Part shown: positions 2,932-45,426 of the stretch, piece by piece
How positions within the stretch are numbered: the stretch's first letter is position 1
Layout: each line of letters begins with the position of its first letter
Assembly (NCBI GenBank): GCA_018303365.1
Contig: JAGVYI010000021.1
Span: forward strand, 1-54,838
Direction: 5' to 3'
Length of the DNA stretch: 54,838 nt
From: Candidatus Woesearchaeota archaeon
Lineage (GTDB): Archaea; Nanobdellota; Nanobdellia; SCGC-AAA011-G17; JACPNG01
The notes under the pieces: generated by a model
What the model saw: only the letters and a program-made list of their open reading frames with translations
Databases searched by the model: none
Told to the model about the DNA's origin: nothing
Program-made: the position numbers and the translations under genes

Positions 2932-3188
2932 GTTTTTATCCTTTCTTTTGATGCGACTTTTGGTTTATGTACTCTTTTTTCTGTTTTTTCAATCTGTTAA
3001 ACCCATCTGGAGTGTAGTATAAGAAATCTATTGGATAATCTTATGTCCTAGCCTGTAAACTTAATTAATGATAAGGCCCACAAATCGGAATGTTTATATA
3101 TATATAATTAGATTATATGCATCTATGATGGTATGGATGGAAGCAAACTTATTGTTCTTGCAGCTTTTATTCTTACTTGGAGGTTCAA

Positions 3189-5670: not shown

Positions 5671-8184
5671 ATGCGTCTTGGGCTGATTGTCACTTTTTTA
5701 TTTCTTATTCCCTTAGCTTATGCCCAAAGTGTTGATATTGCTGGTCAAGAGGTCCCGTTTGTTCTTTTGGTTCCTCTTGGGTTTATTCTGCTCGGCATCT
5801 TTTTTTTCCTTGTTATCTTCCTGAAAGACCACCTTAAGTCTCTTCGGACTTTTCTTTCCTTCTTAAAACCAACTTTGCCAAGGCGTTCTTCGCATAGGTC
5901 ATCACAACCACTTTCCAAGGATTATGCCCAGGAGCTTCACCTTTTTTCAAAGAGGGCTTCTAGTCTTCCTTTAGAGAATGCTTTCTCACAGCTTCACGGT
6001 CTTTTTCGAGATTACCTTATTGAGAGATACCATTTTTCTCCAGGCACAACCAATGAAGAGATTGCTATGAAAGTATCTGACCGCAAGATTGTGGCGCTTC
6101 TTCAGTCCCTTTCTGAAATACAATACAGTGGCAGTTCGCTTTCCTCGGCAAAGTTCTCTTCTTTTCTTTCCTCATTTCACAAAATTATTAATCGCCACAT
6201 AGATGTGAAGCCGAAGTCTATTTTCTCTTTTCGCTCTAAACCAAAGTCTTTTCCTTTGGCAGGCAAAAAGAAGTTTTCTGGTAAAACAATAAACCTTTCT
6301 TTTCTCTACTCTTTTTTTCCTAAAATCTTTTCCAAAATTCATATTCCCCGCATTTCTTTTTCTTTTCGTAGAAAAACCTCAAGGCAGCTTCCTAAAAACA
6401 TTTTGCAGAAGAAGTCTCCAGCAAAAGAACCTAAAAAAGCAAGCAGGCATATTCTTCGCTCCTTTTTCAGGATTCTTTATAACAACCGTATTCATCACCA
6501 TATAAAATCCTCGTTCAGGCTTCCTTTGCGCCGTAGGCATTCTATAAAAAAGCAAGGGCAGGTAGTATCACATAGAGTTACCTCTTCGGCTATTTCCCGT
6601 TCTTCTCGAGTTCCATCTTTCTCTTTGAAGAAGGGATTATTCTCCTCATTTAACTCTGCTATAAAATCCTGTACAGGGGTCGTGAAGAAGGGATTACATT
6701 TTTTTTCTAAGGGCTTTCTTAACTGTTATGCAATCCTGCCTTTTTCATATCATAAAATCCAGTCAGTTTATGCTGTTATACCAACTTTTTTCTACGCAAC
6801 CCATGCGCGTTATTTTTACTGGCGTGTATCATGGCTTATTGACAAAGGCTTCCGTGTTGCTCCTTCTTCCCCATCCAAGGCGAAGGAGATTTACTTTCGT
6901 GCGCTTGCATTTTATACAAAACTTACTGTCCCATCTTTAGACCCTTTAGGTGTTCGCTTACTTGAGCTTTATGATGCTGCAGAAGCTTCGCAGCTTTCAA
7001 AATCACAACAGCGCCTGAGTGTGCTTTCGCGTTACCTTGACCGCTTTGAGAAGGAGGCATATGTTCTTGGCTCTGCGCCGCCTGTTGTTCTTATTAAATG
7101 CCGCGAAGTTCTTGAACACCTTACCCTCAGCAGCTCTTTCCGGATTCATCAGATTCAGGACCATGTTCGCTCTCTTTCTAAACTTGTTCCTGATCTGTCT
7201 TTCAAGGGCATATCAGGGCACTTCTCCAATTTACCAAAACCATCTTCACACCTTTCGAAAGTTTCTTTTTCAAAGTTATTTGTGCACACTTTACGAAACA
7301 AACCCCAAAAGAAGAGACACCTTCGCTCTGTTTCAAAACCACACCACCTTTTTGAGCGCTTCTTCGCGCTTTCCCACTCATACGGCCTTCTATCCTCTGC
7401 ACTGCAATGGTCACGCTCTCGCTTATTTTTCAGGCATATTCCCCGCTATTTCGCTTCTTTTTCCATAAGGCGTCCAAGTTTATCCAAATTAAAACCTACT
7501 ATTCCTTCTTTTTCTTTCAGTAGGTTTCTTAACTCATACCGTGCATTTCTTCATAATGAAGAGAAGGCATTTTTGCGTCATTTAAAGCGCCTACAGGGTT
7601 CTATGCATTCTATCAAGCGTGATTCTTCCCACTCTTTTTCAGAATTTTTCTCCCACCTTGAGGGGCAATTAGTCCACAGACTTCATGGCGTTGAGCAAGG
7701 CATTTTATACCACCTTCATGCGCTTGAGCGTGAATTTTCACGTATTGAGCGAAAAGGAATTGACAGCCTTTCTTCCTTGCATCCTCTTGAGAAAAAAGTG
7801 GCTTTTAGAATTACATGGTCCAGCCTATCCTCTTCAGAGAAGCGGATTGCCCACCATCTTGGAGAACTTCTTCATCTTTCTTCGCAGCGAAAGCAGCCAT
7901 CTATAGAAGAACATAGCATTCCTTTTTCCTCTGAACCAATTGTTACCATTCATGAAGACCTTGCAGACCCTATCTTTTCAGTACTTACTGAGATTCATCG
8001 GGAGCGGCAAAGCACACTGTCGCATATGCCTTCTATTGCCCCTTTGCCCCGCAAGTTAGATAGCAAAACCTTTAGTGACGATTCTCACATAGTACAGCAG
8101 CCTTCTCTTTCCCGCCAACTTAAAGCCCTCACCAAAGAAGAAGAGGTCCTTTTCCAGAAACTTATCGAGCTTGACTCTTCTTAG
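5671..8184 (+). CDS. orphan 837-aa membrane-anchored, highly basic Ser/Leu/Phe/Arg/His-rich protein
   Basis: 2.5-kb uninterrupted ORF with no competing antisense ORF. N-terminus MRLGLIVTFLFLIPLAYAQS (signal), then TM FVLLVPLGFILLGIFFFLVIF. Low-complexity runs such as HHHIKSSFRLPLRRRHSIKK. Confidence 0.7.
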   Translation: MRLGLIVTFLFLIPLAYAQSVDIAGQEVPFVLLVPLGFILLGIFFFLVIFLKDHLKSLRTFLSFLKPTLPRRSSHRSSQPLSKDYAQELHLFSKRASSLPLENAFSQLHGLFRDYLIERYHFSPGTTNEEIAMKVSDRKIVALLQSLSEIQYSGSSLSSAKFSSFLSSFHKIINRHIDVKPKSIFSFRSKPKSFPLAGKKKFSGKTINLSFLYSFFPKIFSKIHIPRISFSFRRKTSRQLPKNILQKKSPAKEPKKASRHILRSFFRILYNNRIHHHIKSSFRLPLRRRHSIKKQGQVVSHRVTSSAISRSSRVPSFSLKKGLFSSFNSAIKSCTGVVKKGLHFFSKGFLNCYAILPFSYHKIQSVYAVIPTFFYATHARYFYWRVSWLIDKGFRVAPSSPSKAKEIYFRALAFYTKLTVPSLDPLGVRLLELYDAAEASQLSKSQQRLSVLSRYLDRFEKEAYVLGSAPPVVLIKCREVLEHLTLSSSFRIHQIQDHVRSLSKLVPDLSFKGISGHFSNLPKPSSHLSKVSFSKLFVHTLRNKPQKKRHLRSVSKPHHLFERFFALSHSYGLLSSALQWSRSRLFFRHIPRYFASFSIRRPSLSKLKPTIPSFSFSRFLNSYRAFLHNEEKAFLRHLKRLQGSMHSIKRDSSHSFSEFFSHLEGQLVHRLHGVEQGILYHLHALEREFSRIERKGIDSLSSLHPLEKKVAFRITWSSLSSSEKRIAHHLGELLHLSSQRKQPSIEEHSIPFSSEPIVTIHEDLADPIFSVLTEIHRERQSTLSHMPSIAPLPRKLDSKTFSDDSHIVQQPSLSRQLKALTKEEEVLFQKLIELDSS

Positions 8185-9637
8185 TTTTCTGCACTTTTTT
8201 TAGCGTGTATTGGAGGGGGTTTTTTATTGTCCTGCACCAATTGTCCGGATTACACACCCCGAACTCCAAGTAATACGCCTTGTTTGCGCAGTTGGGGGGT
8301 GGGATTTTTTCTTTTTGTCTTCTATGCCAGCTTTGCTGTGCCCTGATGTATCCTTCCCTAAGAGGCTCACTATTTTTTTTATTCCATTCTTCCAGCTTTT
8401 CCTGTATTTCGTTGTCTTTCCATCCCAGACCTTTAAAAAAGTTGATAAGAATAAATACAGATCTTTTTTTCCCGTCTTTTTGTATTCCTTCAAGTATTTT
8501 CCTGATGCATGGTGGAAACTGCTTTTCATCTTTTATTGCTATTTTTGGAACTTCAAATTCCTTTTGGGGATTTTCATCCTTTTCTTCAACAAACTTGGGA
8601 TTATAATCAAATGCCTGGATGATGAGCCTGTCTGCTTCACCAGATGTTGCTTTAGCTGCATCAAGAAATTTGAATCTAGATATGATTACCTTTTCAGGCT
8701 GGGCCTTTGTCTTGTTAAATTCTTCTATCCTATCGAGGTTTATCGGTATTGAGACAAGCCCTGATTTTTCATGCAAGCTATATACACTCCTATATAAATG
8801 GCGCTGGCTTATAAGCAACGTGTCGATTGCAAGGTCTATCTTCTCTTTGAACTTGACGCCTTCACATGCGCTACATCTCTCGTTTATTTCACCTATTTTT
8901 TGCATTAATTTTCCACAATGTGGGCATGTTATATAATTCTCACTGCTTTTTTCCTCCTTTCTACACCATTTGCAGATAAAGGCCTGGTTTTTTTCTTCCT
9001 CTTTCTTTTGCCTACCGCAATCTATACAGATAACTTTAACATATCCTTTTGTATCTTCTCCGTTTCCTTCAAGTATCCTCTTTATTTCCTCGGTTATGTT
9101 ATACTTTTCCTGAATGTAACCTTCAAGGTACATTACAATCCTCTTGATTCCTTCTGGAAATAGGTTACGCAATGGTTTGCTGTTTATTGTGAGGTCTTTT
9201 GAGAATGCTTCGTAAGGCACCCCTATATGAAATCCTTTATTACCCGAGAATTTTATGCTTATTGCCTTTATACCATGGTCTTTGATTGCCCTGACCATCT
9301 GCTTTGCCACATGCTTTGCCACATCCCATACTTCAAAGTCAATATCAACTATCAAGTCCCATCCTGACCTAATCCTTTCTAATTCTCTTTTTGTCATTCC
9401 TGCAGCAAGTTCCAAAGGATTTAGCCAATGCTCTTCTGATACGTGAATGGATGTTGCGCCTTGTCTTGCCAGCTCAAGAATGTCCCCTTCAAATTGTAAT
9501 ATATCCGGCCTTCTTCCAAAGCCTTTTTCCGCATATTTTGCTGCTACTTCCCTTCCCCGGGTTGTTCTTAGAATTTCTCTTTGAATGTCCTTTCTAGTGT
9601 AAAACGCCCATGCTTTTGTTTCATTTTTCTCTTTCAT
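8162..9637 (-). CDS. priS: DNA primase, single-chain PriS catalytic domain fused to a PriL-CTD-like Fe-S domain
   Basis: AEP motifs LIVDIDFE, FSGNKGFHIGV and AIDTLL..LYRSVYSLHEKSG. Zn knuckles CIDCG..CKWC and CPHCG..CSAC. C-terminus has FPPCIRK..PPPNC..GVCNPDNWC..IKNPLQY as in PriL-CTD. Confidence 0.85.
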   Translation of the reverse strand: MKEKNETKAWAFYTRKDIQREILRTTRGREVAAKYAEKGFGRRPDILQFEGDILELARQGATSIHVSEEHWLNPLELAAGMTKRELERIRSGWDLIVDIDFEVWDVAKHVAKQMVRAIKDHGIKAISIKFSGNKGFHIGVPYEAFSKDLTINSKPLRNLFPEGIKRIVMYLEGYIQEKYNITEEIKRILEGNGEDTKGYVKVICIDCGRQKKEEEKNQAFICKWCRKEEKSSENYITCPHCGKLMQKIGEINERCSACEGVKFKEKIDLAIDTLLISQRHLYRSVYSLHEKSGLVSIPINLDRIEEFNKTKAQPEKVIISRFKFLDAAKATSGEADRLIIQAFDYNPKFVEEKDENPQKEFEVPKIAIKDEKQFPPCIRKILEGIQKDGKKRSVFILINFFKGLGWKDNEIQEKLEEWNKKNSEPLREGYIRAQQSWHRRQKEKIPPPNCANKAYYLEFGVCNPDNWCRTIKNPLQYTLKKVQKTKKSQAR

Positions 9638-26076: not shown

Positions 26077-29000
26077 TTATTGTGCTGGTTGTACCTTAAT
26101 TGTTCTTTCGTTTCCAAACACATCCTGACACCTGACAGTGTACGGCTCTCCTGCCCAGTTTGCCTGATGCTCTTTGCCTTCGTCTATCATTGGTGTTCCT
26201 TCTCCAAACCTAAAATTATCTGTTGCTGCATATTCGCATATTGCATCTTCACTTGTTTGAATGTGTAAGATTTGCTTGTTATTTTCAAGATAAATTCCAG
26301 TAATTATTGGAGCGTCTAAGTCTACACGAACATTGACTGTTGTCTGACCGTCTGCCTCATTTCCTGCGTCATCTCTGCATTTTACATTGAATGCATACCT
26401 TCCTGTTTGAAGAGTTTCAAATGTTTGAGTATGGATGCTTTGTCCGGTATTCTTGAATGGGGCCATACTTTCAAAAATCGTATCTTCTCCACCATATCCA
26501 CAGATTGCCTGTCCGTTTCCTGACCCCCCTCCTGTCTCTACAGTTAAAGTTAGGTTGTTTACAAACAACGTTCCACTTGGGCTTATTTCTTTTATGGTTA
26601 GGGATAGTGTTCCTATGATCGTGAATTCAAATGCTTCTTCGTTTGTATTTCTCTGGTCTTCTGGAGCACTTGGCTTATCTTGGCACTTAAAGAAGAACTC
26701 ATTTTCGTCTTCTATAAGTCTTGTTAGTGTTGTTTGACATTCGTATAATCCGCGCAGACTTGGTGATGTTGCAAATGAGCTTCTTGCGCAGTTGAACTCT
26801 TCTTCGAGATCATTGTACGGTTTATCTGCTCGTGACCAGCGACATAGACTTGGTTCGTTTACATAAATACTTAGTGGAGCTTCCTCTGTTCCATGGGGTA
26901 TAAATGCTCCGTTCTGAATACTCGTCCTCTCGATTTTCGGTGCAGTGAGGTCTGGTCCTGGTTTTACCCTGAATTTTATAAAATAGTCTCTTTCATTTTT
27001 GTTTCCAGTGGCGTCTTGGCAGCGGATATAGATTGTATTTACCCCGCCATTTGTTATTCTTAATGCATCTTCTGCCACTAATTCACTTGTTATCCCTAAT
27101 GCAGTGGTGTGATTATAAGAGAATGCAGATGCTCCGAAGTATCTATTCATCATGTCTTCAAATCTTATTGAATGATTTGTATCGTACTTGCACTGTGCCG
27201 GCTCGTTTGTGTTGATGCCGATTGTTATCGGACTGAATGGCTCTATTCTTTCGTTTATTTGGTATCCTTTGTTCCCCTGCTCTGTTACTTCCCTTAAGGT
27301 TAATCCCCTTGCAAGGTCTTCTGGCGCAGGACTAATAATTGGGGAGTTCACATCATTCGGATTTAAGTTTACACAACGCTCTTCACTTGTTCCCTGATTG
27401 ATTAAGCCACAAAGTTGTCCCAAGGATTTACAACGATACTCTGAGCAGGGCAAGTTTCCCTCATTGCAGAGTTCACATTTGTTTCCTCCTGTTGGCGCTT
27501 GCCAGGCAGAGCATTGAACTGCATAAGTTACTTCTTTTACTTGTTCTGTTGCGGCATTGATGATGCTTGCTATTGATATTGCTATAAAGGCCGGTCCTAT
27601 GAATCCGATAGGATTTAGACCTACTCCTGCAAATGGATTAAAGAGTGCGCTGAACCCTCCTACTGGTGCTAATATAGCTGGTGATCCTCCCGCCACACTA
27701 CCTGTTACTGCTGTTGCTACAAGACCTCCCACCTGCTTTCCTGCAAATGCCGCAACAAGGGTTGTTGCTGTCAGTCCTCCAAACCCAATTGCTCCAGAAA
27801 CACCAAGTCTTCTTACAAATCCTGCTTTGGTATAATCTTCATCTGAAATTGTTGAGAGCGTATCGAAATCCCCGATATCTTCTCTTGTCAGGGCGTATCC
27901 GTGAAAGAAATTCCTTTCTTCTGAAGCTGTATTCCCATATCCATCTAAAGTTATGTCTCCTGCAATGTTGTAATATGCCCCACAATCTCCAAGGCTTTTA
28001 CAATAATTATTTCCTGCGACAACCCAGTCTTTTGTTATGCACTGGCAATTATTGACACATTCCCAATCATCCCCTGCAAATATTCTTGTAACTGCTCCTT
28101 TCTTCTTGAATGTGACTGTGCACTCTTTATTTCCAATATCACAAGCACTTTCTGCGTTTGTAGTGGGGGTTCTTTGGATTGCAGATGGAACTCCTTCTCT
28201 TTGGGACTGCTGGTTTGTATTCTGCTGCGTCTCTCCAGACCAGAATGCAAGGCCTGGCGGTACTTGTGGAACGCATACTCCTGCGTTTGCAGGTATGACT
28301 GCGTTTCCATCCTCATCAGTATTGGGTGTTGTTATAATCCCAGCTTCAAGCCAAGAGCAATCCCTTTGTGCGTTGTTTTCACAGCATTTTCTTGCACAAC
28401 ATGCAGTTTTTTCTGCACCTGAGAATTGGTCGCATTCTGAACCACATGTTTTTACATCATTGCATGTTTGGCATGTCTCCCACCTATTGTCCCTACACGC
28501 AGCTTCTACGTATTCCCCTCGTGCTTTGAAACTTTCCTGGGTTCCTAGGATGTCTTGTCCTAATACCCCTTGTACACAAATTTCTTCTCTAAAGTCGCGG
28601 CATGGTTCAATTATCTCTTCCCCATTTATACAAGTGTTTCTAAAGTGGCGTGAGCCGACGAGATCTTTTCCTTGTCCGACATCACCATCATATAAACACC
28701 AACTCTCTCCATTTTTCTTTGTCCCTCCACTACTTGGACTACTATCATCATCTAATGTGGTCTGGCAGTCTATGCTTTGACATATATATTCTCCAAAGGC
28801 GGGAGTTATGCTTCTTGGTGCCTTTTTGCACAGTGTTCCCTGGGCATAATTGCAGTTTCCACAAGAGGGGTCATTTACCCCCCCTTGACAGCTTCTCTCT
28901 TGCTGCAGGACAAATCCTCCATTGTAAGCGCGTTCTTTGTTTGCATCATATATATTTTCTGGATTTCCACAGGAATCAAACCAGTAAACATCTTCTTCAA

Positions 29001-29673
29001 AGCATCCTGTTCTTTGCTGGGGGGCACATTCAGTTCCTAGTTCCTGGTTACTACAAAGGGTATCTTTATGAAACCCCACCCTCACAGTTCTTGTAACATT
29101 GCCCCCTAGTTCTCCTTCTTGCTCCTGCGCATTGCACGTCTCTCTTGTAGTAAACTGACATGTTCCATCTGGTATTACACAGGCCCCTTTGTCTTGGCTT
29201 CTGCTTTTATCAATGCAGGCCTGCTCTGTTGTTATTGTTTCATCAAAACTTATTTCTGCATTTGGAAAGTTGCTTGCTTCCCGTCTGCATTGCGTCTGGG
29301 TTACAAAGAAACTTTCTGTTCCTACAATGCAGCATCCTCTGGTACACTCTGAAACCTGACACTCAGACTGCGGCCTCCACGTACCACCTTGGTTTTCGCA
29401 AGTTGCTTGCGGAGCGTTTTTGTAACATATCCCTTTTTGTGCATCCACGCAACACCCTATTTGGCAGTAGGATGTTTCTTCACAAGTTGTCGGGACTGCG
29501 AATTTTCCACTACTGGTATCGCAGTTGCTGATCTCTGTGTATACACAGGAGTCTCCGTTTAGTGTCTCTTGGCAACATGCTCTTTGCTGGGCGTAGGCTG
29601 CTACTTTTGGGGCTATTAAAAATAACCCCAAGAAAAGTAATATCATTACTAAGGTATGCACGCTTTCTTTCAT
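26077..29673 (-). CDS. giant Cys-rich surface protein, paralog A (1198 aa): signal peptide, Cys-rich domain, Gly/Ala hydrophobic segment, Cys knot, four two-Cys modules
   Basis: Signal peptide MKESVHTLVMILLFLGLFLIAPKVAAYA|QQ. About 51 Cys by hand count in residues 31-570. Clearly paralogous to 30487..33729. No named family recognised. Confidence 0.85.
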   Translation of the reverse strand: MKESVHTLVMILLFLGLFLIAPKVAAYAQQRACCQETLNGDSCVYTEISNCDTSSGKFAVPTTCEETSYCQIGCCVDAQKGICYKNAPQATCENQGGTWRPQSECQVSECTRGCCIVGTESFFVTQTQCRREASNFPNAEISFDETITTEQACIDKSRSQDKGACVIPDGTCQFTTRETCNAQEQEGELGGNVTRTVRVGFHKDTLCSNQELGTECAPQQRTGCFEEDVYWFDSCGNPENIYDANKERAYNGGFVLQQERSCQGGVNDPSCGNCNYAQGTLCKKAPRSITPAFGEYICQSIDCQTTLDDDSSPSSGGTKKNGESWCLYDGDVGQGKDLVGSRHFRNTCINGEEIIEPCRDFREEICVQGVLGQDILGTQESFKARGEYVEAACRDNRWETCQTCNDVKTCGSECDQFSGAEKTACCARKCCENNAQRDCSWLEAGIITTPNTDEDGNAVIPANAGVCVPQVPPGLAFWSGETQQNTNQQSQREGVPSAIQRTPTTNAESACDIGNKECTVTFKKKGAVTRIFAGDDWECVNNCQCITKDWVVAGNNYCKSLGDCGAYYNIAGDITLDGYGNTASEERNFFHGYALTREDIGDFDTLSTISDEDYTKAGFVRRLGVSGAIGFGGLTATTLVAAFAGKQVGGLVATAVTGSVAGGSPAILAPVGGFSALFNPFAGVGLNPIGFIGPAFIAISIASIINAATEQVKEVTYAVQCSAWQAPTGGNKCELCNEGNLPCSEYRCKSLGQLCGLINQGTSEERCVNLNPNDVNSPIISPAPEDLARGLTLREVTEQGNKGYQINERIEPFSPITIGINTNEPAQCKYDTNHSIRFEDMMNRYFGASAFSYNHTTALGITSELVAEDALRITNGGVNTIYIRCQDATGNKNERDYFIKFRVKPGPDLTAPKIERTSIQNGAFIPHGTEEAPLSIYVNEPSLCRWSRADKPYNDLEEEFNCARSSFATSPSLRGLYECQTTLTRLIEDENEFFFKCQDKPSAPEDQRNTNEEAFEFTIIGTLSLTIKEISPSGTLFVNNLTLTVETGGGSGNGQAICGYGGEDTIFESMAPFKNTGQSIHTQTFETLQTGRYAFNVKCRDDAGNEADGQTTVNVRVDLDAPIITGIYLENNKQILHIQTSEDAICEYAATDNFRFGEGTPMIDEGKEHQANWAGEPYTVRCQDVFGNERTIKVQPAQ

Positions 29674-30486: not shown

Positions 30487-33400
30487 TTACGGGTGGATTA
30501 CCATTTCTTGCATTCTGTTCTGTTTTGCATCTTCACAGATTAAGTGATACTCTGCTGCTTCTAGTCCTATTATAAATTGTTCCTGTTCTTGCCCTATTAT
30601 CGTACCTTCTTCATAACTAAACGACTTTGTGTCTATTTTGCAAGTGCCTTTTTCATTTAGAATTATTACTAGCTGACCCTGTTCTTTGTATATATTCTTT
30701 ATTTTCGGAGGGGTTCTATCTTGCTTTATTTCAAAACTTACCTCGCGTTGCGCTTGGTTCCCAATTTCATCTTCGCACCTTATCGGAATGTTATACTTGC
30801 CTTCAGGCAAGGTAAGTTGCTGAATGTGGACTGTGCTTTGTGTATTTTTCATGTTGACCCAATGTCCACCTTGTATTTGCATTTGACATATTGCTTTGCC
30901 ACCTTCCGCCCCACCTGTTGTTTGTATTTCAATGACAATCTCATTTTCAAGAAGTTCACCTTGTGGCTGGATTCCTGCGATTAGTAGTTCGCTTGTTTTT
31001 TCTATTCTTTTTTGTATTCCTTGGGTGTTTATATTTCCTTGCTGGTCCTGGCATCGGATGTAATATGTTGTTGTCTGGTCCAAGTTTATGTTTGTGCTAC
31101 ATATATATTTTCCATTACTTCTAGGGGTTTGATCGCAAAGAAGTGGGTCACCCATATCTTCAAAAGGGGCATCTACTTTTGCATACCTGCACACTGCTTG
31201 TTCGTTAACCTGAACTTCTAAGATTGTTTGGTCAACTCCGTTTGGAAGCTTGTCTGTTTCTCTTAGTAATTCTACTCTTGGAGGGCTTAGGTCTACAGTA
31301 CTTACTTGGTAGCTTATGCGATAATCTCTTTCATTTTTGTTTCCTGCTACGTCCTGGCATCGGATGTAAATATCTTTTTGTCCACCTGTACCTTCACTTT
31401 TTGTTAGTGAGTGGGTTGTTTTTAGACTTGACCCTTCTATTGTTGATATCATATCATCGAATCTTTGGTTTGGTTGGTTTGCATATTTACACTTAGCTAG
31501 CTCATCTGTTTCTATACCGAATTCAATTGTTTGGTGTATTTCTACTTCCGGGGTAATATCATATCCTACTTCCGTATTCCTTAGCTGAAATCCTTCTGTT
31601 AGTTTGCCTTGCAATGGTCTTATTACCGGGCTTTTTGTATCATTTCTTCCTGCGTTGAAACAAGACTGTCTTGTTGTGCCTTCATTTTCTGGGATGTACT
31701 GGCATGCTTGTCCTATGGACTTACAGCGATATTCTGTGCATTCTTTTCCATCTTGTCCGCATATATCACAATTTGCCCCTCCAGGCGGAGCTTGCCAAGG
31801 TTGGCATGTTACGCTATAGTGTTTTTCTTTTACTTTTGCAAATAGGTGGATTATAACAAAGAAAACCGCAACTGCGAGGACAATCCATGGTATTGCAGCC
31901 AGTATTGTTCCTGCTGCACTTGCTCCAGTAGCAGTGCTTCCTGCTGCAGCATTTGCTGCACTGATTGCATTTCCTGTTGCAAATTCTGCTATTCCAGTGT
32001 ATACCGGTGCTGCGGTTTCTGCTGCAGCTAAGCTTGAGAGTGTTACTGTTGCTGTGCCTGTTGTTGTGGCTGCGGTTCCTATTCCGATTGCTTTTCCAAG
32101 CAGGGCACTGATGCTAGGCAGGCCTATCTTTGGTCCAATAATTCCAAGTGTTGCGAATCCTAGTTGGATCCATGCTTTCGTAGGGACAGCATCTAGTCCT
32201 CGATATTGACTTGCATCAAAGTCTTCTGTGCTTAGTCCTCTTCCTGCGCTTTGCAGCTTTACAAATTCTTCTTGTTGTGGCGCTCTTGGTGGGTTTGTCT
32301 CCAGTCCTTCTTTTGTATAATCTCCGTCGACATTGTAATATGCTCCACAATCTCCAAGGGATATGCAATATGCATTTGCTTGGTCTATCCATGGCTGCCT
32401 TTCACATTCACAATTAGCTTCACATTTCCAGCTGGAAAGCAGTGTGCGTTTTACGTAATAAACTGTGCACTCTTGGCTTGCTTGACTACAAATTTCTTTA
32501 GCATCTTCTACATGGACCTGCCCTGTTGTTTTTGTTTCCCAGAACTTTAGACCAGGTGGTACTTGGGGTATACACCTTCCTTGGTTTTCGTTTCCAATCC
32601 AGCTACAGCTTTTCTGTGGATCTAGACAACACTCTCTATCCTCTTGAGACTTTTGCTGAAATTCCCTATTGTTCCTTGCATCTTTTGCTGTGTTGCATGT
32701 GGTTGCACATTCTTCCCAATTGTTTGTTACACACAATGCTTCATTATATGTTCCCCTTCCTGTTCCAGTTACTCTTGTTTGTACGCACGCCTGCTCACGA
32801 TAGTCTCTACAAGGTTCAATTACTTCTTCTCCGTTTACACAAAGTCTTCTAAAATGGCGTGAGCCAACGAGGTCTGTGCCACTTCCAGTGATTCCTTCAT
32901 ATTCACACCAGCTTTCTCCATTCTTTCTTAGTCCTCCATCGCCTTCTGTTGCAGGGCTGTTGTATGTTTGTAGGCAGTCAATGCTCTTACATACAAACTG
33001 CCCGTTTTCCTCGCCACATGTTAATCCTTGGTCATAACTGCACTCTTGAATTATGTCTTCTTTGTTATTACACGAATCGAACCAGTATATATCTCCTTCA
33101 AAACATCTTTTGTGATCTTTTGGTCTACATGTACAGGACTCAACTCTGCTACAATGCTGGTTCTGAAAGAAGTCTCCTTCTTGTTGTATACAATCCCCCC
33201 TTTTTTCTATGGTACACACGCCTTCTTTTTCACAACATCCTCCTTCTTCTTGCTGACAGAAACCAGCACATTCCTGTTCACTTAGGGTTTCCCTAAACTC
33301 TGAGTTTGCCCTCCCAAATGTTGCGGCTTGCCCAATACATTCCAGATTGGTTTCGATGCTGCATTGGTTTTCAATAATACAACATCCTTGCCTACATTCT

Positions 33401-33729
33401 TGGGTGTTACAATCCGCTCTTGGATCAAATATCCCCCCTTGATTTTTACAGGTTGCTTTTGGTGTGTTTGCTTGGCAGTTTCCTTCATTATTGCGGCAAC
33501 AGCCTACTTGGCAGAAATCAGTCTGAGCGCAGTTTAATCCTTGTACACTCCTGTAGTCTGGGTTACATTGTTCCTGACCTGTTTGTATGCAGGTTTCTCC
33601 TACGATGGTCCTTTCGCAACAGACTGTTTGTTTGGCATATGCCTGTTCTGGATTGTATACAGCGAATATTGTTAGAATGAGAATTATTATTTCTAAACAG
33701 GCTTTTACCTTTTGACCTCTTTGTTGCAT
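30487..33729 (-). CDS. giant Cys-rich surface protein, paralog B (1080 aa), same architecture as paralog A
   Basis: Signal peptide ..CLEIIILILTIFAVYNPEQAYA|KQ. Motifs shared with paralog A include CFEGDIYWFDSC, KNGESWC..DLVGSRHFR..C.NGEE.IEPCRD, PQVPPGL.FW, SLGDCGAYYN and IYIRCQD..GNKNERDY. Confidence 0.85.
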   Translation of the reverse strand: MQQRGQKVKACLEIIILILTIFAVYNPEQAYAKQTVCCERTIVGETCIQTGQEQCNPDYRSVQGLNCAQTDFCQVGCCRNNEGNCQANTPKATCKNQGGIFDPRADCNTQECRQGCCIIENQCSIETNLECIGQAATFGRANSEFRETLSEQECAGFCQQEEGGCCEKEGVCTIEKRGDCIQQEGDFFQNQHCSRVESCTCRPKDHKRCFEGDIYWFDSCNNKEDIIQECSYDQGLTCGEENGQFVCKSIDCLQTYNSPATEGDGGLRKNGESWCEYEGITGSGTDLVGSRHFRRLCVNGEEVIEPCRDYREQACVQTRVTGTGRGTYNEALCVTNNWEECATTCNTAKDARNNREFQQKSQEDRECCLDPQKSCSWIGNENQGRCIPQVPPGLKFWETKTTGQVHVEDAKEICSQASQECTVYYVKRTLLSSWKCEANCECERQPWIDQANAYCISLGDCGAYYNVDGDYTKEGLETNPPRAPQQEEFVKLQSAGRGLSTEDFDASQYRGLDAVPTKAWIQLGFATLGIIGPKIGLPSISALLGKAIGIGTAATTTGTATVTLSSLAAAETAAPVYTGIAEFATGNAISAANAAAGSTATGASAAGTILAAIPWIVLAVAVFFVIIHLFAKVKEKHYSVTCQPWQAPPGGANCDICGQDGKECTEYRCKSIGQACQYIPENEGTTRQSCFNAGRNDTKSPVIRPLQGKLTEGFQLRNTEVGYDITPEVEIHQTIEFGIETDELAKCKYANQPNQRFDDMISTIEGSSLKTTHSLTKSEGTGGQKDIYIRCQDVAGNKNERDYRISYQVSTVDLSPPRVELLRETDKLPNGVDQTILEVQVNEQAVCRYAKVDAPFEDMGDPLLCDQTPRSNGKYICSTNINLDQTTTYYIRCQDQQGNINTQGIQKRIEKTSELLIAGIQPQGELLENEIVIEIQTTGGAEGGKAICQMQIQGGHWVNMKNTQSTVHIQQLTLPEGKYNIPIRCEDEIGNQAQREVSFEIKQDRTPPKIKNIYKEQGQLVIILNEKGTCKIDTKSFSYEEGTIIGQEQEQFIIGLEAAEYHLICEDAKQNRMQEMVIHP

Positions 33730-36132: not shown

Positions 36133-36771
36133 TTAAACCTTTCTCCTTCTTTTTTCTAACATCCACACCCCTACATCTGTGTAGTATGTCTTTTTTCTAT
36201 GGAAGGTTAGGGTGGGTTTAAGAGGGAATTTTATAGGTATAATCCCCTTTATACTAAATCCATTATCTTCTGCGAGCGTTGCAATAAACCTTTCTCCTGC
36301 TATTTTGTGAATACTGTATATTGTCGGCGCCAACTCCATAGCTTTAAGTAGAAATGCTTTATCTGCATGGGGCTGCTTTGTACCAAATGGCGGATTTTGA
36401 ATGATGACCTGCGCTCTTTTTTTGTAGAGTCTAATCTCTCTTTGTACAAACTCTGCTCTATATTTTCTTTTTAGATTTTTCTCTACTGCTATTTTGTTTT
36501 CTTCTGCCTTCTTGAGAGCTTCAAGATCGATGTCAACAAATGTTACTTTTCTTGCGCCTAGGATAAGCGCACCTATTCCTAGGATACCGGTTCCGCACCC
36601 TAAATCAATGCAGGATTTGCCTTCTATGTCTCCGTTGAGAAATGCTTTCCAAATGACCTGTGCAGCTATTTCTGCTTCTGTCTGATATTGCTCTAGCTTA
36701 ACTTTAGGATTCTCGAAGGTGGCTAGCTTTGTTAATTCTACTGCCACTGATTTTTTTGTTATTTTTCCCAT
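36133..36771 (-). CDS. SAM-dependent N6-adenine methyltransferase, METTL5/COG2263-like
   Basis: DLGCGTGILGIGALILGA..VTFVDID (SAM motif I/II) and IIQNPPFG (NPPF catalytic motif). Confidence 0.8.
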   Translation of the reverse strand: MGKITKKSVAVELTKLATFENPKVKLEQYQTEAEIAAQVIWKAFLNGDIEGKSCIDLGCGTGILGIGALILGARKVTFVDIDLEALKKAEENKIAVEKNLKRKYRAEFVQREIRLYKKRAQVIIQNPPFGTKQPHADKAFLLKAMELAPTIYSIHKIAGERFIATLAEDNGFSIKGIIPIKFPLKPTLTFHRKKTYYTDVGVWMLEKRRRKV

Positions 36772-43390: not shown

Positions 43391-43961
43391 CTTCCTGTTC
43401 TTTTTCTGCTTCCTTTCTATCCTCTAACTCTTCAGGAGCAGATCTTATCTCTTCTGGTATTTGGCTTTCTATTTTATCCTTTAGTTCTTCCTCTACAACA
43501 TCAAAATAATCGAAGAACTTTGATGTCAACTTCAAGAGTCTTGTCCTTCCCTTTTTCTCCGATGTTATAAATTTATTCTCCCTTAATGTTTTTATGTGAT
43601 CATATGCCGAGTTTCCCCTTATTTCAATTATTCCTGATTGCATTACTGGTTGTTTGTAAGCAATGATCGCCAATGTTTGGGTTGTAGGTCTATCGAATTC
43701 TGAATCTGATAGAAGGCTGGTTGTGAGGTAGCTGTATTCCTTTTTTATGTTGAGCTTCCATTTTCCATTTTCTTCTTGAATCTCGAGTGCAGTGTCCTTT
43801 CTTTCATAATTTTTTTTTAGTTCTTCTAGAGTGGTCTTGACATATCCCAGTGAGCCAATATGGCAGAGTCTTGCAACTTCTTCTATTTCCATGAATCTTC
43901 CGGTTGTGAACAGAATAGCCTCTACCTTTTTTATCTCCGATTCCATTTTATTATATTGCAA
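43377..43961 (-). CDS. scpB: segregation and condensation protein B (ScpB)
   Basis: VEAILFTTGRFMEIEEVARL..TLAIIAYKQPVMQSGIIEIRG indicates two wHTH domains. The track start is TTG; an in-frame ATG lies at 43946. Confidence 0.8.
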   Translation of the reverse strand: MQYNKMESEIKKVEAILFTTGRFMEIEEVARLCHIGSLGYVKTTLEELKKNYERKDTALEIQEENGKWKLNIKKEYSYLTTSLLSDSEFDRPTTQTLAIIAYKQPVMQSGIIEIRGNSAYDHIKTLRENKFITSEKKGRTRLLKLTSKFFDYFDVVEEELKDKIESQIPEEIRSAPEELEDRKEAEKEQEDEKL

Positions 43962-45426
43962 ACCTTAAGATTGCCGCAACCCCTCCCAAGCTCTTTAACT
44001 GACTTCCTTCTCTTGACTCTATTGAGATGATGTGGGTTTGGGTGCTGAACTCTTCTGCTTTTTCTTCAAACTCTTCTATCAGCTGCTCATCTAAGCCTTC
44101 AGAAAGGAGCAGTTTTTCTACTACCCCCATTTCAAGCGCTTTCTTTACAGCTTCTTTTCCATAACTTGTTTTCTCTGGCTCTTTTGCAAGCAACTCAAAA
44201 AACTCGGTCATTACCTGTTTTTCCTGTATAATCTCTTCTTTTAGCAGAATATCATAAGACTTTTCTACCAGCTCATGTAAACCTGTTTCGTCTGTATAAG
44301 GAACGTCTTTTATTCCTAAAACTTTCCTTTTTAGTTCATTATTGAGATAATCCATGAACTCTTCTTTTGTTGGACCGGGTCCTCCGATGATAATCCCCTT
44401 GATTTCTTTGTTTTCGAGAAACTCTTTATTTGCCGCTTCTGCTATTCTTTTGTAGAACTCCTTTGCTGCTCCTTCCCTTATTCTGTGAAACCGCTGTGCA
44501 GAATTATGCACAACAAATCCGTTTGCTATGAAGTTTCCTTTTTCTACTTCTATGTCAATGAGTTCTATTTTTTTATCTGTCTTTTTTATACTTTCTATTT
44601 TTTCTCCTGTCCCTTTTTCTGTGAGAAGCTTATCTTCTGTTGTTAATTCTTCTGCTATCTTTGTACTTCCGTCTTCAATAAAGAAAATATGGTCTTTTGA
44701 GCTTTCAATCTCTTTTGTTTGCGTCCTTATTAGTATTGTTCGGTCCACACTTTTTTTCCATATCTTATTTACCTTGCTTTCTTCTGCCTTTTTTCCTTTC
44801 ACATTCCAAGACTTCACTATGTCTTCTTCTTCAAGTTCTTCAAGAGGTATTAGCTGACTGTCTGCCAATTCAATGATTGTATCCTGGTTTAAGCACTGCC
44901 CTCCTGCTCTTGTTTTTCCGGGTACACCTGATGTAAGGTGTCTGTCTGCTGTAATCCTTGTTCCTTTTAGAAAACCTAGTGAGGCTTCTCGCCTGTCTAG
45001 CACGATAAGACCGAACATTTCTTTTGTGTCAAGCATCTCTTTTAATATGTCGAGCACAAAGGTCTGGTCGCAACGATACATCCTTGTGTTGAGTGGTCCA
45101 GGTGGTTCAATGGACCATACTCTGATATCTATCTTACTTTCGTTCTCTGACGCATTTCCTGCAAATACTGCTAATCCATTGTCCGGTGTTTTCTTGAATA
45201 GCTTTAGGTGTCTTATTGTTTTTTCAAGAGAATCTATTACGTTTTTTCTTGTACGCGCATCTTTGATGTTTGTTGCTGTTCCTTGTTCTTGTTGCAGATG
45301 ATTAATTATCTTATTCATGTCATACCCTGCTGGGATGTAAACCGATACTAACTCGGTATGTCTTCCCCTAATCACTTCAAGTTCTCTCAAGAACTTTCTT
45401 AATATGTGTCTTTGTTTTCTATTCAT
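43951..45426 (-). CDS. prf1: peptide chain release factor aRF1, interrupted by a mini-intein
   Basis: NIKS-region TATNIKDARTRKNV. GVPGKTRAGGQ / intein / SAQRFHRIREGAAKEFYKRI. The ~360-aa extein aligns with aRF1. Confidence 0.9.
   Translation of the reverse strand: MNRKQRHILRKFLRELEVIRGRHTELVSVYIPAGYDMNKIINHLQQEQGTATNIKDARTRKNVIDSLEKTIRHLKLFKKTPDNGLAVFAGNASENESKIDIRVWSIEPPGPLNTRMYRCDQTFVLDILKEMLDTKEMFGLIVLDRREASLGFLKGTRITADRHLTSGVPGKTRAGGQCLNQDTIIELADSQLIPLEELEEEDIVKSWNVKGKKAEESKVNKIWKKSVDRTILIRTQTKEIESSKDHIFFIEDGSTKIAEELTTEDKLLTEKGTGEKIESIKKTDKKIELIDIEVEKGNFIANGFVVHNSAQRFHRIREGAAKEFYKRIAEAANKEFLENKEIKGIIIGGPGPTKEEFMDYLNNELKRKVLGIKDVPYTDETGLHELVEKSYDILLKEEIIQEKQVMTEFFELLAKEPEKTSYGKEAVKKALEMGVVEKLLLSEGLDEQLIEEFEEKAEEFSTQTHIISIESREGSQLKSLGGVAAILRFAI
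44503..44895 (-). other. 131-aa mini-intein inserted between GGQ and Ser of aRF1
   Basis: Begins Cys (CLNQDTIIEL). Block B-like SSKDHIFF. Block F/G ELIDIEVEKGNFIANGFVVHN followed by Ser +1. No endonuclease domain. Confidence 0.8.

Follow-up and report, generated by a model that had tools for sequence, protein, structure and literature searches.

How can a class I release factor act when its GGQ motif, which is common to such factors in all domains of life, is followed directly by 131 residues that do not belong to the catalytic loop? This question is raised by a contig of 54,838 nucleotides (nt) from Candidatus Woesearchaeota archaeon (assembly GCA_018303365.1, contig JAGVYI010000021.1; the whole stretch that was analysed, of about 55 kb, is hereafter called the window), in which the gene for the release factor aRF1 carries an in-frame insert between Gln177 of GGQ and Ser309. 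A reading made from the letters of the DNA (hereafter the sequence-only reading) had placed a mini-intein of 131 amino acids (aa) at positions 44503-44895, directly after the GGQ of aRF1. These coordinates are exact, and the strand, which that reading left unstated, is the minus strand, whose translation gives the quoted residues; the plus strand of the same interval, which was also considered, is full of stops. Those elements of the reading that could be checked were all borne out. Its sequence and predicted fold identify the insert as a canonical mini-intein of class 1, for which splicing activity is predicted. We consider it highly likely, at roughly nine chances in ten, that constitutive, autocatalytic class 1 splicing restores the GGQ loop, a view that draws on the sequence and on the modelled fold.

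The identity of the host gene is supported by several features. The host open reading frame (ORF) scored 395.9 bits against the aRF1 equivalog model TIGR03676 (cut-off 234.7), the insert breaking the match into three stretches, and the Pfam families PF03463/4/5 (eRF1 domains 1-3) were all detected in it, along with the aRF1 motifs NIKD (residue 53), YRCDQTF (residue 117) and GGQ (residue 175) in the precursor. By these motifs and profile matches, the host gene is aRF1, the archaeal class I release factor. It is the sole class I release factor gene of the window, where a search for a second aRF1 or for pelota found neither; the statement of the sequence-only reading that this is the only release factor visible holds for these 55 kb and does not extend to the whole genome. 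The source of the window is a DPANN archaeon of the Woesearchaeota/Nanoarchaeota type. An assembly artefact or chimera was ruled out, because two further ENA assemblies hold the same locus nearly unchanged (11-12 mismatches over 13-21 kb), with one synonymous change in the aRF1 gene.

Around the two junctions the aRF1 ORF reads ...SGVPGKTRAGGQ^CLNQDT...NGFVVHN^SAQRFHRIREGAAKEFYKRI (^ marks a junction; the C-extein side is also given as SAQRFHRIREGAAK...). Taken alone, the insert scored above the cut-offs of the intein splicing models PF14890 (Intein_splicing; 42.2 bits, cut-off 35.8), TIGR01445 (intein N-terminal region; 33.5 bits, cut-off 24.5) and TIGR01443 (intein C-terminal region; 20.8 bits, cut-off 15.6), scores that put chance similarity out of the question. 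Intein/HINT families were its only Pfam matches of note and, as the sequence-only reading had claimed, a homing-endonuclease domain is absent, the 131 aa making up a single HINT domain. The class 1 hallmarks listed in that reading (Cys1, block B, blocks F/G and a +1 Ser) are present and invariant in relatives, and the motifs lie where it had put them, SKDH at residues 66-69 and ELIDIEVEKGNFIANGFVVHN at residues 111-131. In a 34-sequence alignment of homologous inserts (alignment A1), which also served as input for the AlphaFold2 (AF2) model, C1, S66, D68, H69, D114, F122, V129, H130 and N131 are invariant; across 104 mini-inteins, S66, D68 and H69 of block B are at least 95% conserved, and the +1 residue is Ser in all relatives, intein-bearing and intein-free alike. 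The precursor contains only two cysteines, Cys119 and Cys178, the latter being intein Cys1; the intein thus has no internal Cys, which excludes the class 3 (WCT Cys) arrangement. The AF2 model of the insert is all-beta, with a mean predicted local distance difference test score (pLDDT) of 97.4 and a predicted template modelling score (pTM) of 0.88. A Foldseek comparison with the PDB returned 63 matches at E<=1e-3, of which the 50 best are all HINT-superfamily domains with template modelling (TM) scores of 0.74-0.92 (query-normalised TM 0.83-0.92 for the best matches); they include BIL2, Ssp and Npu DnaB, gp41-1, CDC21, RecA, VMA, PolII and RadA, as well as two Hedgehog autoprocessing domains. 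A search of the window for further inteins of the aRF1 GGQ-site family found none.

Table 1. Coordinates of the aRF1 gene and of the predicted intein within the window, with the evidence for each feature.
Feature	Position	Strand	Evidence
aRF1 precursor gene (N-extein, mini-intein and C-extein)	43951..45426	minus	ORF list, 491 aa plus stop; TIGR03676; eRF1_1/2/3 Pfam domains; motifs
N-extein, 177 aa, with C-terminal GGQ at 44896-44904; Gln177 is the -1 residue	44896..45426	minus	aligned from residue 12 of PDB 4af1 aRF1
Predicted class 1 mini-intein, 131 aa, HINT domain without endonuclease	44503..44895	minus	translation; PF14890/TIGR01445/TIGR01443; AF2; Foldseek
Block A, CLNQDTI, with the putative nucleophile Cys1 at 44893-44895	44875..44895	minus	Cys1 in 117/117 clustered homologues and 77/77 GTDB loci
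Block B, Ser66-Lys-Asp68-His69, a TxxH-type motif with Ser replacing Thr	44689..44700	minus	S66, D68 and H69 invariant in alignment A1
Blocks F/G, ELIDIEVEKGNFIANGFVVHN, residues 111-131, with Asp114, penultimate His130 and terminal Asn131	44503..44565	minus	invariant in alignment A1
C-extein, 183 aa plus stop; first residue Ser309 (44500-44502), the putative +1 nucleophile of SAQRF	43951..44502	minus	colinear with aRF1/eRF1 structures

Deletion of the insert yields a 360-aa aRF1 that aligns without gaps to Halobacterium aRF1 (PDB 4af1, E=1e-75) through GGQSAQRF, the stretch in question being 'vpgk.r.GGQSAQRF.R.R', so that the restoration of the GGQSAxRF loop foreseen from the sequence is borne out; this conceptual splice product also aligns to the structures of Aeropyrum aRF1 and of eukaryotic eRF1. 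When the precursor was modelled, each of the three aRF1 domains folded, as did the HINT domain, and pLDDT values below 50 occur only at residues 169-175, directly before the N-terminal junction, while residues 311-320, just past the C-terminal junction, have a mean pLDDT of 56. The stop-codon-recognition domain (NIKD, YxCxxxF) and the C-terminal domain are intact in the precursor. The GGQ loop of aRF1/eRF1 must enter the peptidyl-transferase centre of the ribosome, and because a 15-kDa domain caps this loop, the precursor cannot be catalytically competent. We propose that translation would give a 491-aa precursor, whose HINT domain would bring about an N-S acyl shift at Gln177-Cys178; the N-extein would then be moved onto the side chain of Ser309 (+1), cyclisation of Asn308, aided by His307, would free the 131-aa intein, and an O-N shift would make the Gln177-Ser peptide bond. 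The product would be a 360-aa aRF1 with an intact GGQSAQRF peptidyl-tRNA hydrolysis loop. With a self-splicing element within the GGQ motif, the supply of active release factor would depend on protein splicing.

How widespread this arrangement is was addressed by searching a clustered protein database with the precursor and then with the spliced extein. Nearly all of the best 120 matches to the precursor (119) were intein-bearing aRF1s, and the junction GGQ^C...HN^S was found in 117/117 clustered homologues with readable junctions (it could not be read in 2 others). With the spliced extein as query, a further 107 aRF1s (353-376 aa) came up that have no intein. Those most similar to the window protein in their exteins, at 70-73% identity, belong to this set, and one intein-free orthologue lies at a syntenic locus (L083, see below). 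Most inserts of the clustered set (104/117) are 128-138 aa long, and the remaining 13, of 421-483 aa, contain LAGLIDADG_3 (PF14528). When GTDB species representatives were scanned with junction-spanning patterns, 138 genomes proved to encode a relative and 80 loci were kept, 77 of which show GGQ^C...HN^S (the other 3 being unreadable), hence at least 77 species representatives. The 77 inserts comprise 51 mini-inteins (130-151 aa), 25 full-length inteins (421-508 aa) and a single one of intermediate size, 275 aa (L068, match at 3001-3138), which may represent a decaying endonuclease stage between the full-length and the mini form. Relatives that bear the segment keep all splicing residues and do not show it as a degenerate, fixed part of aRF1; the refuting conditions named with the sequence-only reading do not apply here.

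The record titles of the GTDB loci name Woesearchaeota, Nanoarchaeota, Aenigmatarchaeota (L048, L066, L069) and Iainarchaeum (L052, L058, L081). The exteins of the Aenigmatarchaeota and Iainarchaeum loci share only 36-45% identity with that of the window, which is consistent with truly distant hosts. Some loci are labelled 'Methanosarcinales' or 'bacterium'; since their exteins are 51-62% identical to the window's, values that the other loci bracket (36-70%, mean 57%), these labels are likely due to mis-assignment or mis-binning. The aRF1 GGQ site is occupied in hundreds of public DPANN sequences, and a scan of viral contigs gave one marginal partial match only, which leaves a viral reservoir without support. 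As a separate observation, P0353, an aRF1 interrupted at the identical position by a LAGLIDADG intein of 428 aa, has GGF, not GGQ, before the intein; it would be without the catalytic glutamine after splicing and may represent a variant, a pseudogene or an error.

A comparison of loci with the same gene order shows the aRF1 site in three states. The order valyl-tRNA synthetase (ValRS), aRF1, ScpB and a large membrane protein is common to the window and to the loci L083 and L084, and aRF1 carries the mini-intein in the window, is empty in L083 (P0126) and carries a full-length, 431-aa intein with PF14528 LAGLIDADG_3 in L084 (P0048). The DNA flanks are homologous across the three loci, and the insert lies exactly between the Gln codon (CAA/CAG) and the Ser codon (TCx); the empty site of L083 reads ...GCTGGAGGACAA^TCAGCTCAAAGATTT..., the caret marking the insertion point. 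Empty, mini and full-length states with precise insertion are what a homing element and its endonuclease-free derivative classically leave behind. The genes ValRS, aRF1 and ScpB are tightly packed on the minus strand of the window, the first base of the ValRS stop codon being 45428 and the aRF1 start 45426, and the listed ScpB ORF, with its TTG start, shares 11 nt with the end of aRF1 (43951..43961). In L084 (8044..9300, plus strand), aRF1 and ScpB are separated by a reverse-transcriptase (RVT_1) gene and two ORFs without annotation; a second mobile element may thus adjoin the intein-bearing aRF1.

The relationships of these inteins were approached with a mini-intein profile and with trees. 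Since the profile responds to HINT similarity in general, it matched ~19,000 representative proteins (E<=1e-3); the best per-domain scores (108-131 bits) belong to five aRF1 GGQ-site inteins and to the free-standing protein P0348, while the remaining HINT domains reach at most 83 bits, and given this gap the aRF1 inteins form a distinct family. P0348 itself, a protein of 134 aa, reaches 108 bits and so matches true aRF1 inteins; it is degenerate, with Gly for Cys1, no Asp-His of block B and ...VIS replacing ...VHN, and may have arisen as a copy outside aRF1 that decayed or was domesticated. The 104 mini-inteins share a mean pairwise identity of 44%, their exteins one of 64%, and the intein and extein identities are correlated (Spearman 0.62), a pattern that fits mostly vertical co-inheritance with the intein drifting faster. 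The trees are quick distance trees from a sample biased by the design of the search, and the change counts taken from them are indicative only. On the intein tree (neighbour-joining, 194 splicing domains, concatenated N and C splicing parts), the mini-inteins make up one coherent group apart from the full-length inteins, and the mini/full state changes only three times, which suggests that few endonuclease-loss events lie behind the mini-inteins. On the extein tree, which contains one pure intein-bearing clade of 60 members, the presence or absence of the intein needs at least 36 changes, compared with ~74 after shuffling. The distribution of the intein thus appears clade-structured yet patchy, as expected from gain by homing together with occasional precise loss.

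Most likely, then, the element is a homing intein minus its endonuclease, kept since precise loss is hard and splicing is essential. Its ancestor would have been a LAGLIDADG homing intein at the identical aRF1 site in related archaea; the endonuclease would since have been lost, and the mini-intein would now be inherited mostly vertically. It would be retained because any deletion other than a precise one would ruin a catalytic loop that is essential, so that a working release factor would survive precise deletion only, with the splicing residues presumably under purifying selection. Loss of the endonuclease, after which selection keeps splicing, is presented as the standard model for the origin of mini-inteins in a general intein review (PMC7765530).

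The persistence of the mini-intein can also be read as a sign of function, i.e., that it is a post-translational switch, responding to redox state, temperature or starvation, which gates the supply of active aRF1; we regard this as unlikely, and we think no better of the related idea that the unspliced precursor is a hydrolysis-dead competitor that binds stop codons. It is true that mini-inteins lacking an endonuclease have outlasted deep divergence with their catalytic residues kept (across three DPANN phyla, as labelled, with extein identities as low as 36-45%), that the mini state is coherent on the intein tree, and that the catalytic loop is interrupted while the stop-codon-recognition and C-terminal domains are intact. 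Mutants of the eRF1(AAQ) type stall termination complexes. Such a catalytically dead eRF1(AAQ) is present in the ribosome-bound PDB entries 5lzv and 6hcf. However, retention, along with conserved splicing residues, is expected of any intein in an essential catalytic site, and hence it offers no specific evidence for conditional splicing. Moreover, with two cysteines only in the precursor, the intein lacks a conserved second Cys that could form a disulfide trap, the intein is missing from many close relatives, and a dominant-negative precursor would favour fast, constitutive splicing. If splicing were nevertheless slowed under a physiological signal, termination would be lowered or poisoned by a precursor that has a blocked GGQ loop and keeps its stop-codon-recognition and aEF1alpha-binding domains, and the growth or dormancy of host-dependent DPANN cells could thereby be tuned; the mini-intein would then be a conserved switch of DPANN archaea and more than a stranded parasite.

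Several points weigh against constitutive splicing of a canonical intein in the sole release factor. A second, intein-free aRF1 may lie elsewhere in the genome, the search having covered the 55-kb window. The G+C content of the intein (33.3%) is below that of the flanking extein segments (40.1% and 39.3%) and of the whole window (38.9%); the difference is compatible with foreign origin as well as with relaxed constraint and does not discriminate between them. Block F has Gly where His is usual (KGNF compared with HNF); relatives have N, G or H, and, judging from them, a residue other than His is tolerated here across the aRF1 intein family. Finally, the best PDB matches by both sequence and structure are bacterial intein-like (BIL) domains and not inteins, which bears on the idea of a BIL-type HINT domain that cleaves without ligation and leaves two aRF1 fragments. 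BIL domains are found in proteins that are variable and often secreted or repetitive, and they are not known from conserved motifs of essential enzymes. This idea, which we find hardly credible, has the top structural matches on its side (6y75/6tmm, TM 0.90-0.92; 2lwy, TM 0.91), but the insert is placed between an invariant Gln and an invariant Ser, empty-site orthologues and LAGLIDADG versions exist at the same point, and unligated cutting would wreck the sole release factor of the window. Very improbable, too, is a degenerate, non-splicing insertion, in which a former intein would have become a permanent domain of aRF1, or the gene would be a pseudogene or a paralogue. Decay products of the aRF1 intein family do occur, namely P0353 with its GGF and the degenerate free-standing HINT protein P0348; in the window, however, all splicing residues are present and are invariant in relatives that are otherwise only ~44% identical, the stop-codon and GGQ motifs are intact, the gene holds the conserved orthologue position ValRS-aRF1-ScpB, and neither a second aRF1 nor pelota is encoded. 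Besides, the way in which the loop acts on the ribosome leaves no steric room for a domain of 131 aa at the GGQ tip. We therefore retain constitutive splicing of a class 1 mini-intein as the preferred reading.

Compared with known systems, the insert has the same HINT fold as the solved class 1 mini-inteins Ssp DnaB (1mi8), Npu DnaB (4o1r), gp41-1 (6qaz) and Spl DnaX (7cfv), with TM 0.83-0.87, and shares with them Cys1, the block B His, the block F Asp, the terminal His-Asn, a +1 nucleophile, a length of ~125-140 aa and the lack of an endonuclease. It differs from them in its host, which is aRF1 at GGQ^S instead of a replication protein, in sequence (23-27% identity) and in the Ser that stands in place of the block B Thr. 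The LAGLIDADG inteins at aRF1 GGQ^S of other DPANN archaea (e.g., P0041, P0048/L084, L057-L082) have the insertion point, the junction residues and the synteny in common with it, and their splicing blocks are homologous to those of the mini-inteins (identity 35.8% on average, 54% at most), but in them blocks B and F are separated by an endonuclease insert of 300-400 aa (PF14528), and they are grouped apart on the tree. BIL domains (6y75 BIL2, 2lwy) are the closest structures (TM 0.90-0.92) and likewise have Cys1 and a C-terminal His-Asn. Whereas membership among BILs implies a non-conserved region of a variable protein, without empty-site or endonuclease alleles, the aRF1 insert interrupts a catalytic motif that is invariant, in a gene that is essential and presumably single-copy, and has both empty-site alleles and endonuclease-bearing relatives. 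The aIF2/IF-2 inteins listed in the prokaryotic intein survey (Novikova et al., PMC4760082) also lie within conserved motifs of archaeal translation-machinery proteins, although their hosts are P-loop GTPases.

Has this intein been described before? The sequence-only reading knew of no aRF1 GGQ-site intein among the classical intein hosts; this agrees with the literature searched, while the element is by no means rare in public DPANN sequences. In full-text searches of the literature that paired inteins with release factors (aRF1, eRF1), with GGQ, with translation termination or with DPANN, no description was found. To our knowledge, no aRF1 intein is listed in the InBase registry. No release factor is mentioned in the main texts of the prokaryotic intein survey (PMC4760082), of two eukaryotic intein surveys (PMC5784728 and PMC10710043), of the general intein review (PMC7765530) and of a preprint that deals with insertions in universal archaeal proteins (10.64898/2026.06.17.729505). 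The site is common in public metagenome data, yet it appears to be undescribed in the literature. With the aRF1 GGQ^S position, a well-known kind of element gains a new host and a new site, and no new mechanism is involved; an intein specialist would find it not very surprising. According to the prokaryotic survey (PMC4760082), core transcription and translation components 'contain few inteins'.

The annotation of these genes has practical consequences. Many intein-bearing aRF1s (P0022, P0056, P0105 and many others) are mis-named 'hypothetical protein', 'polymorphic toxin-type HINT domain-containing protein' or 'ribosomal L7Ae/L30e/S12e/Gadd45 family protein', and one relative bears the JGI pipeline label 'peptide subunit release factor 1 (eRF1)/intein/homing endonuclease'. 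The intein thus appears to derail the automatic naming of release factors, and aRF1 can therefore look absent from DPANN genomes. Given a large and diverse family of compact natural mini-inteins (127-138 aa) with a Gln(-1)/Ser(+1) junction, a use in protein engineering is possible, and the empty, mini and full-length alleles at one syntenic locus lend themselves well to work on the homing cycle of uncultured archaea.

Some observations concern the window outside the aRF1 locus. A small class I methyltransferase of MTS/PrmA-like type is encoded at 36133..36771 (minus strand), about 7 kb from aRF1; it was considered as the GGQ-glutamine methyltransferase (PrmC/HemK/Mtq2), but it is not assigned to these families, its weak scores lying far below the cut-offs (e.g., TIGR00537, 21 compared with 87 bits). 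Three very large ORFs, of 1198 aa (26077..29673, minus strand), 837 aa (5671..8184, plus strand) and 1080 aa (30487..33729, minus strand), matched no Pfam family at E<=1e-5, the 1080-aa ORF having a sub-threshold Ig-like match. A 491-aa ORF at 8162..9637 (minus strand) shows weak matches, far below the NCBIfam cut-offs, to PriS (residues ~103-312) and PriL (residues ~349-489), and is a probable fused PriS-PriL primase.

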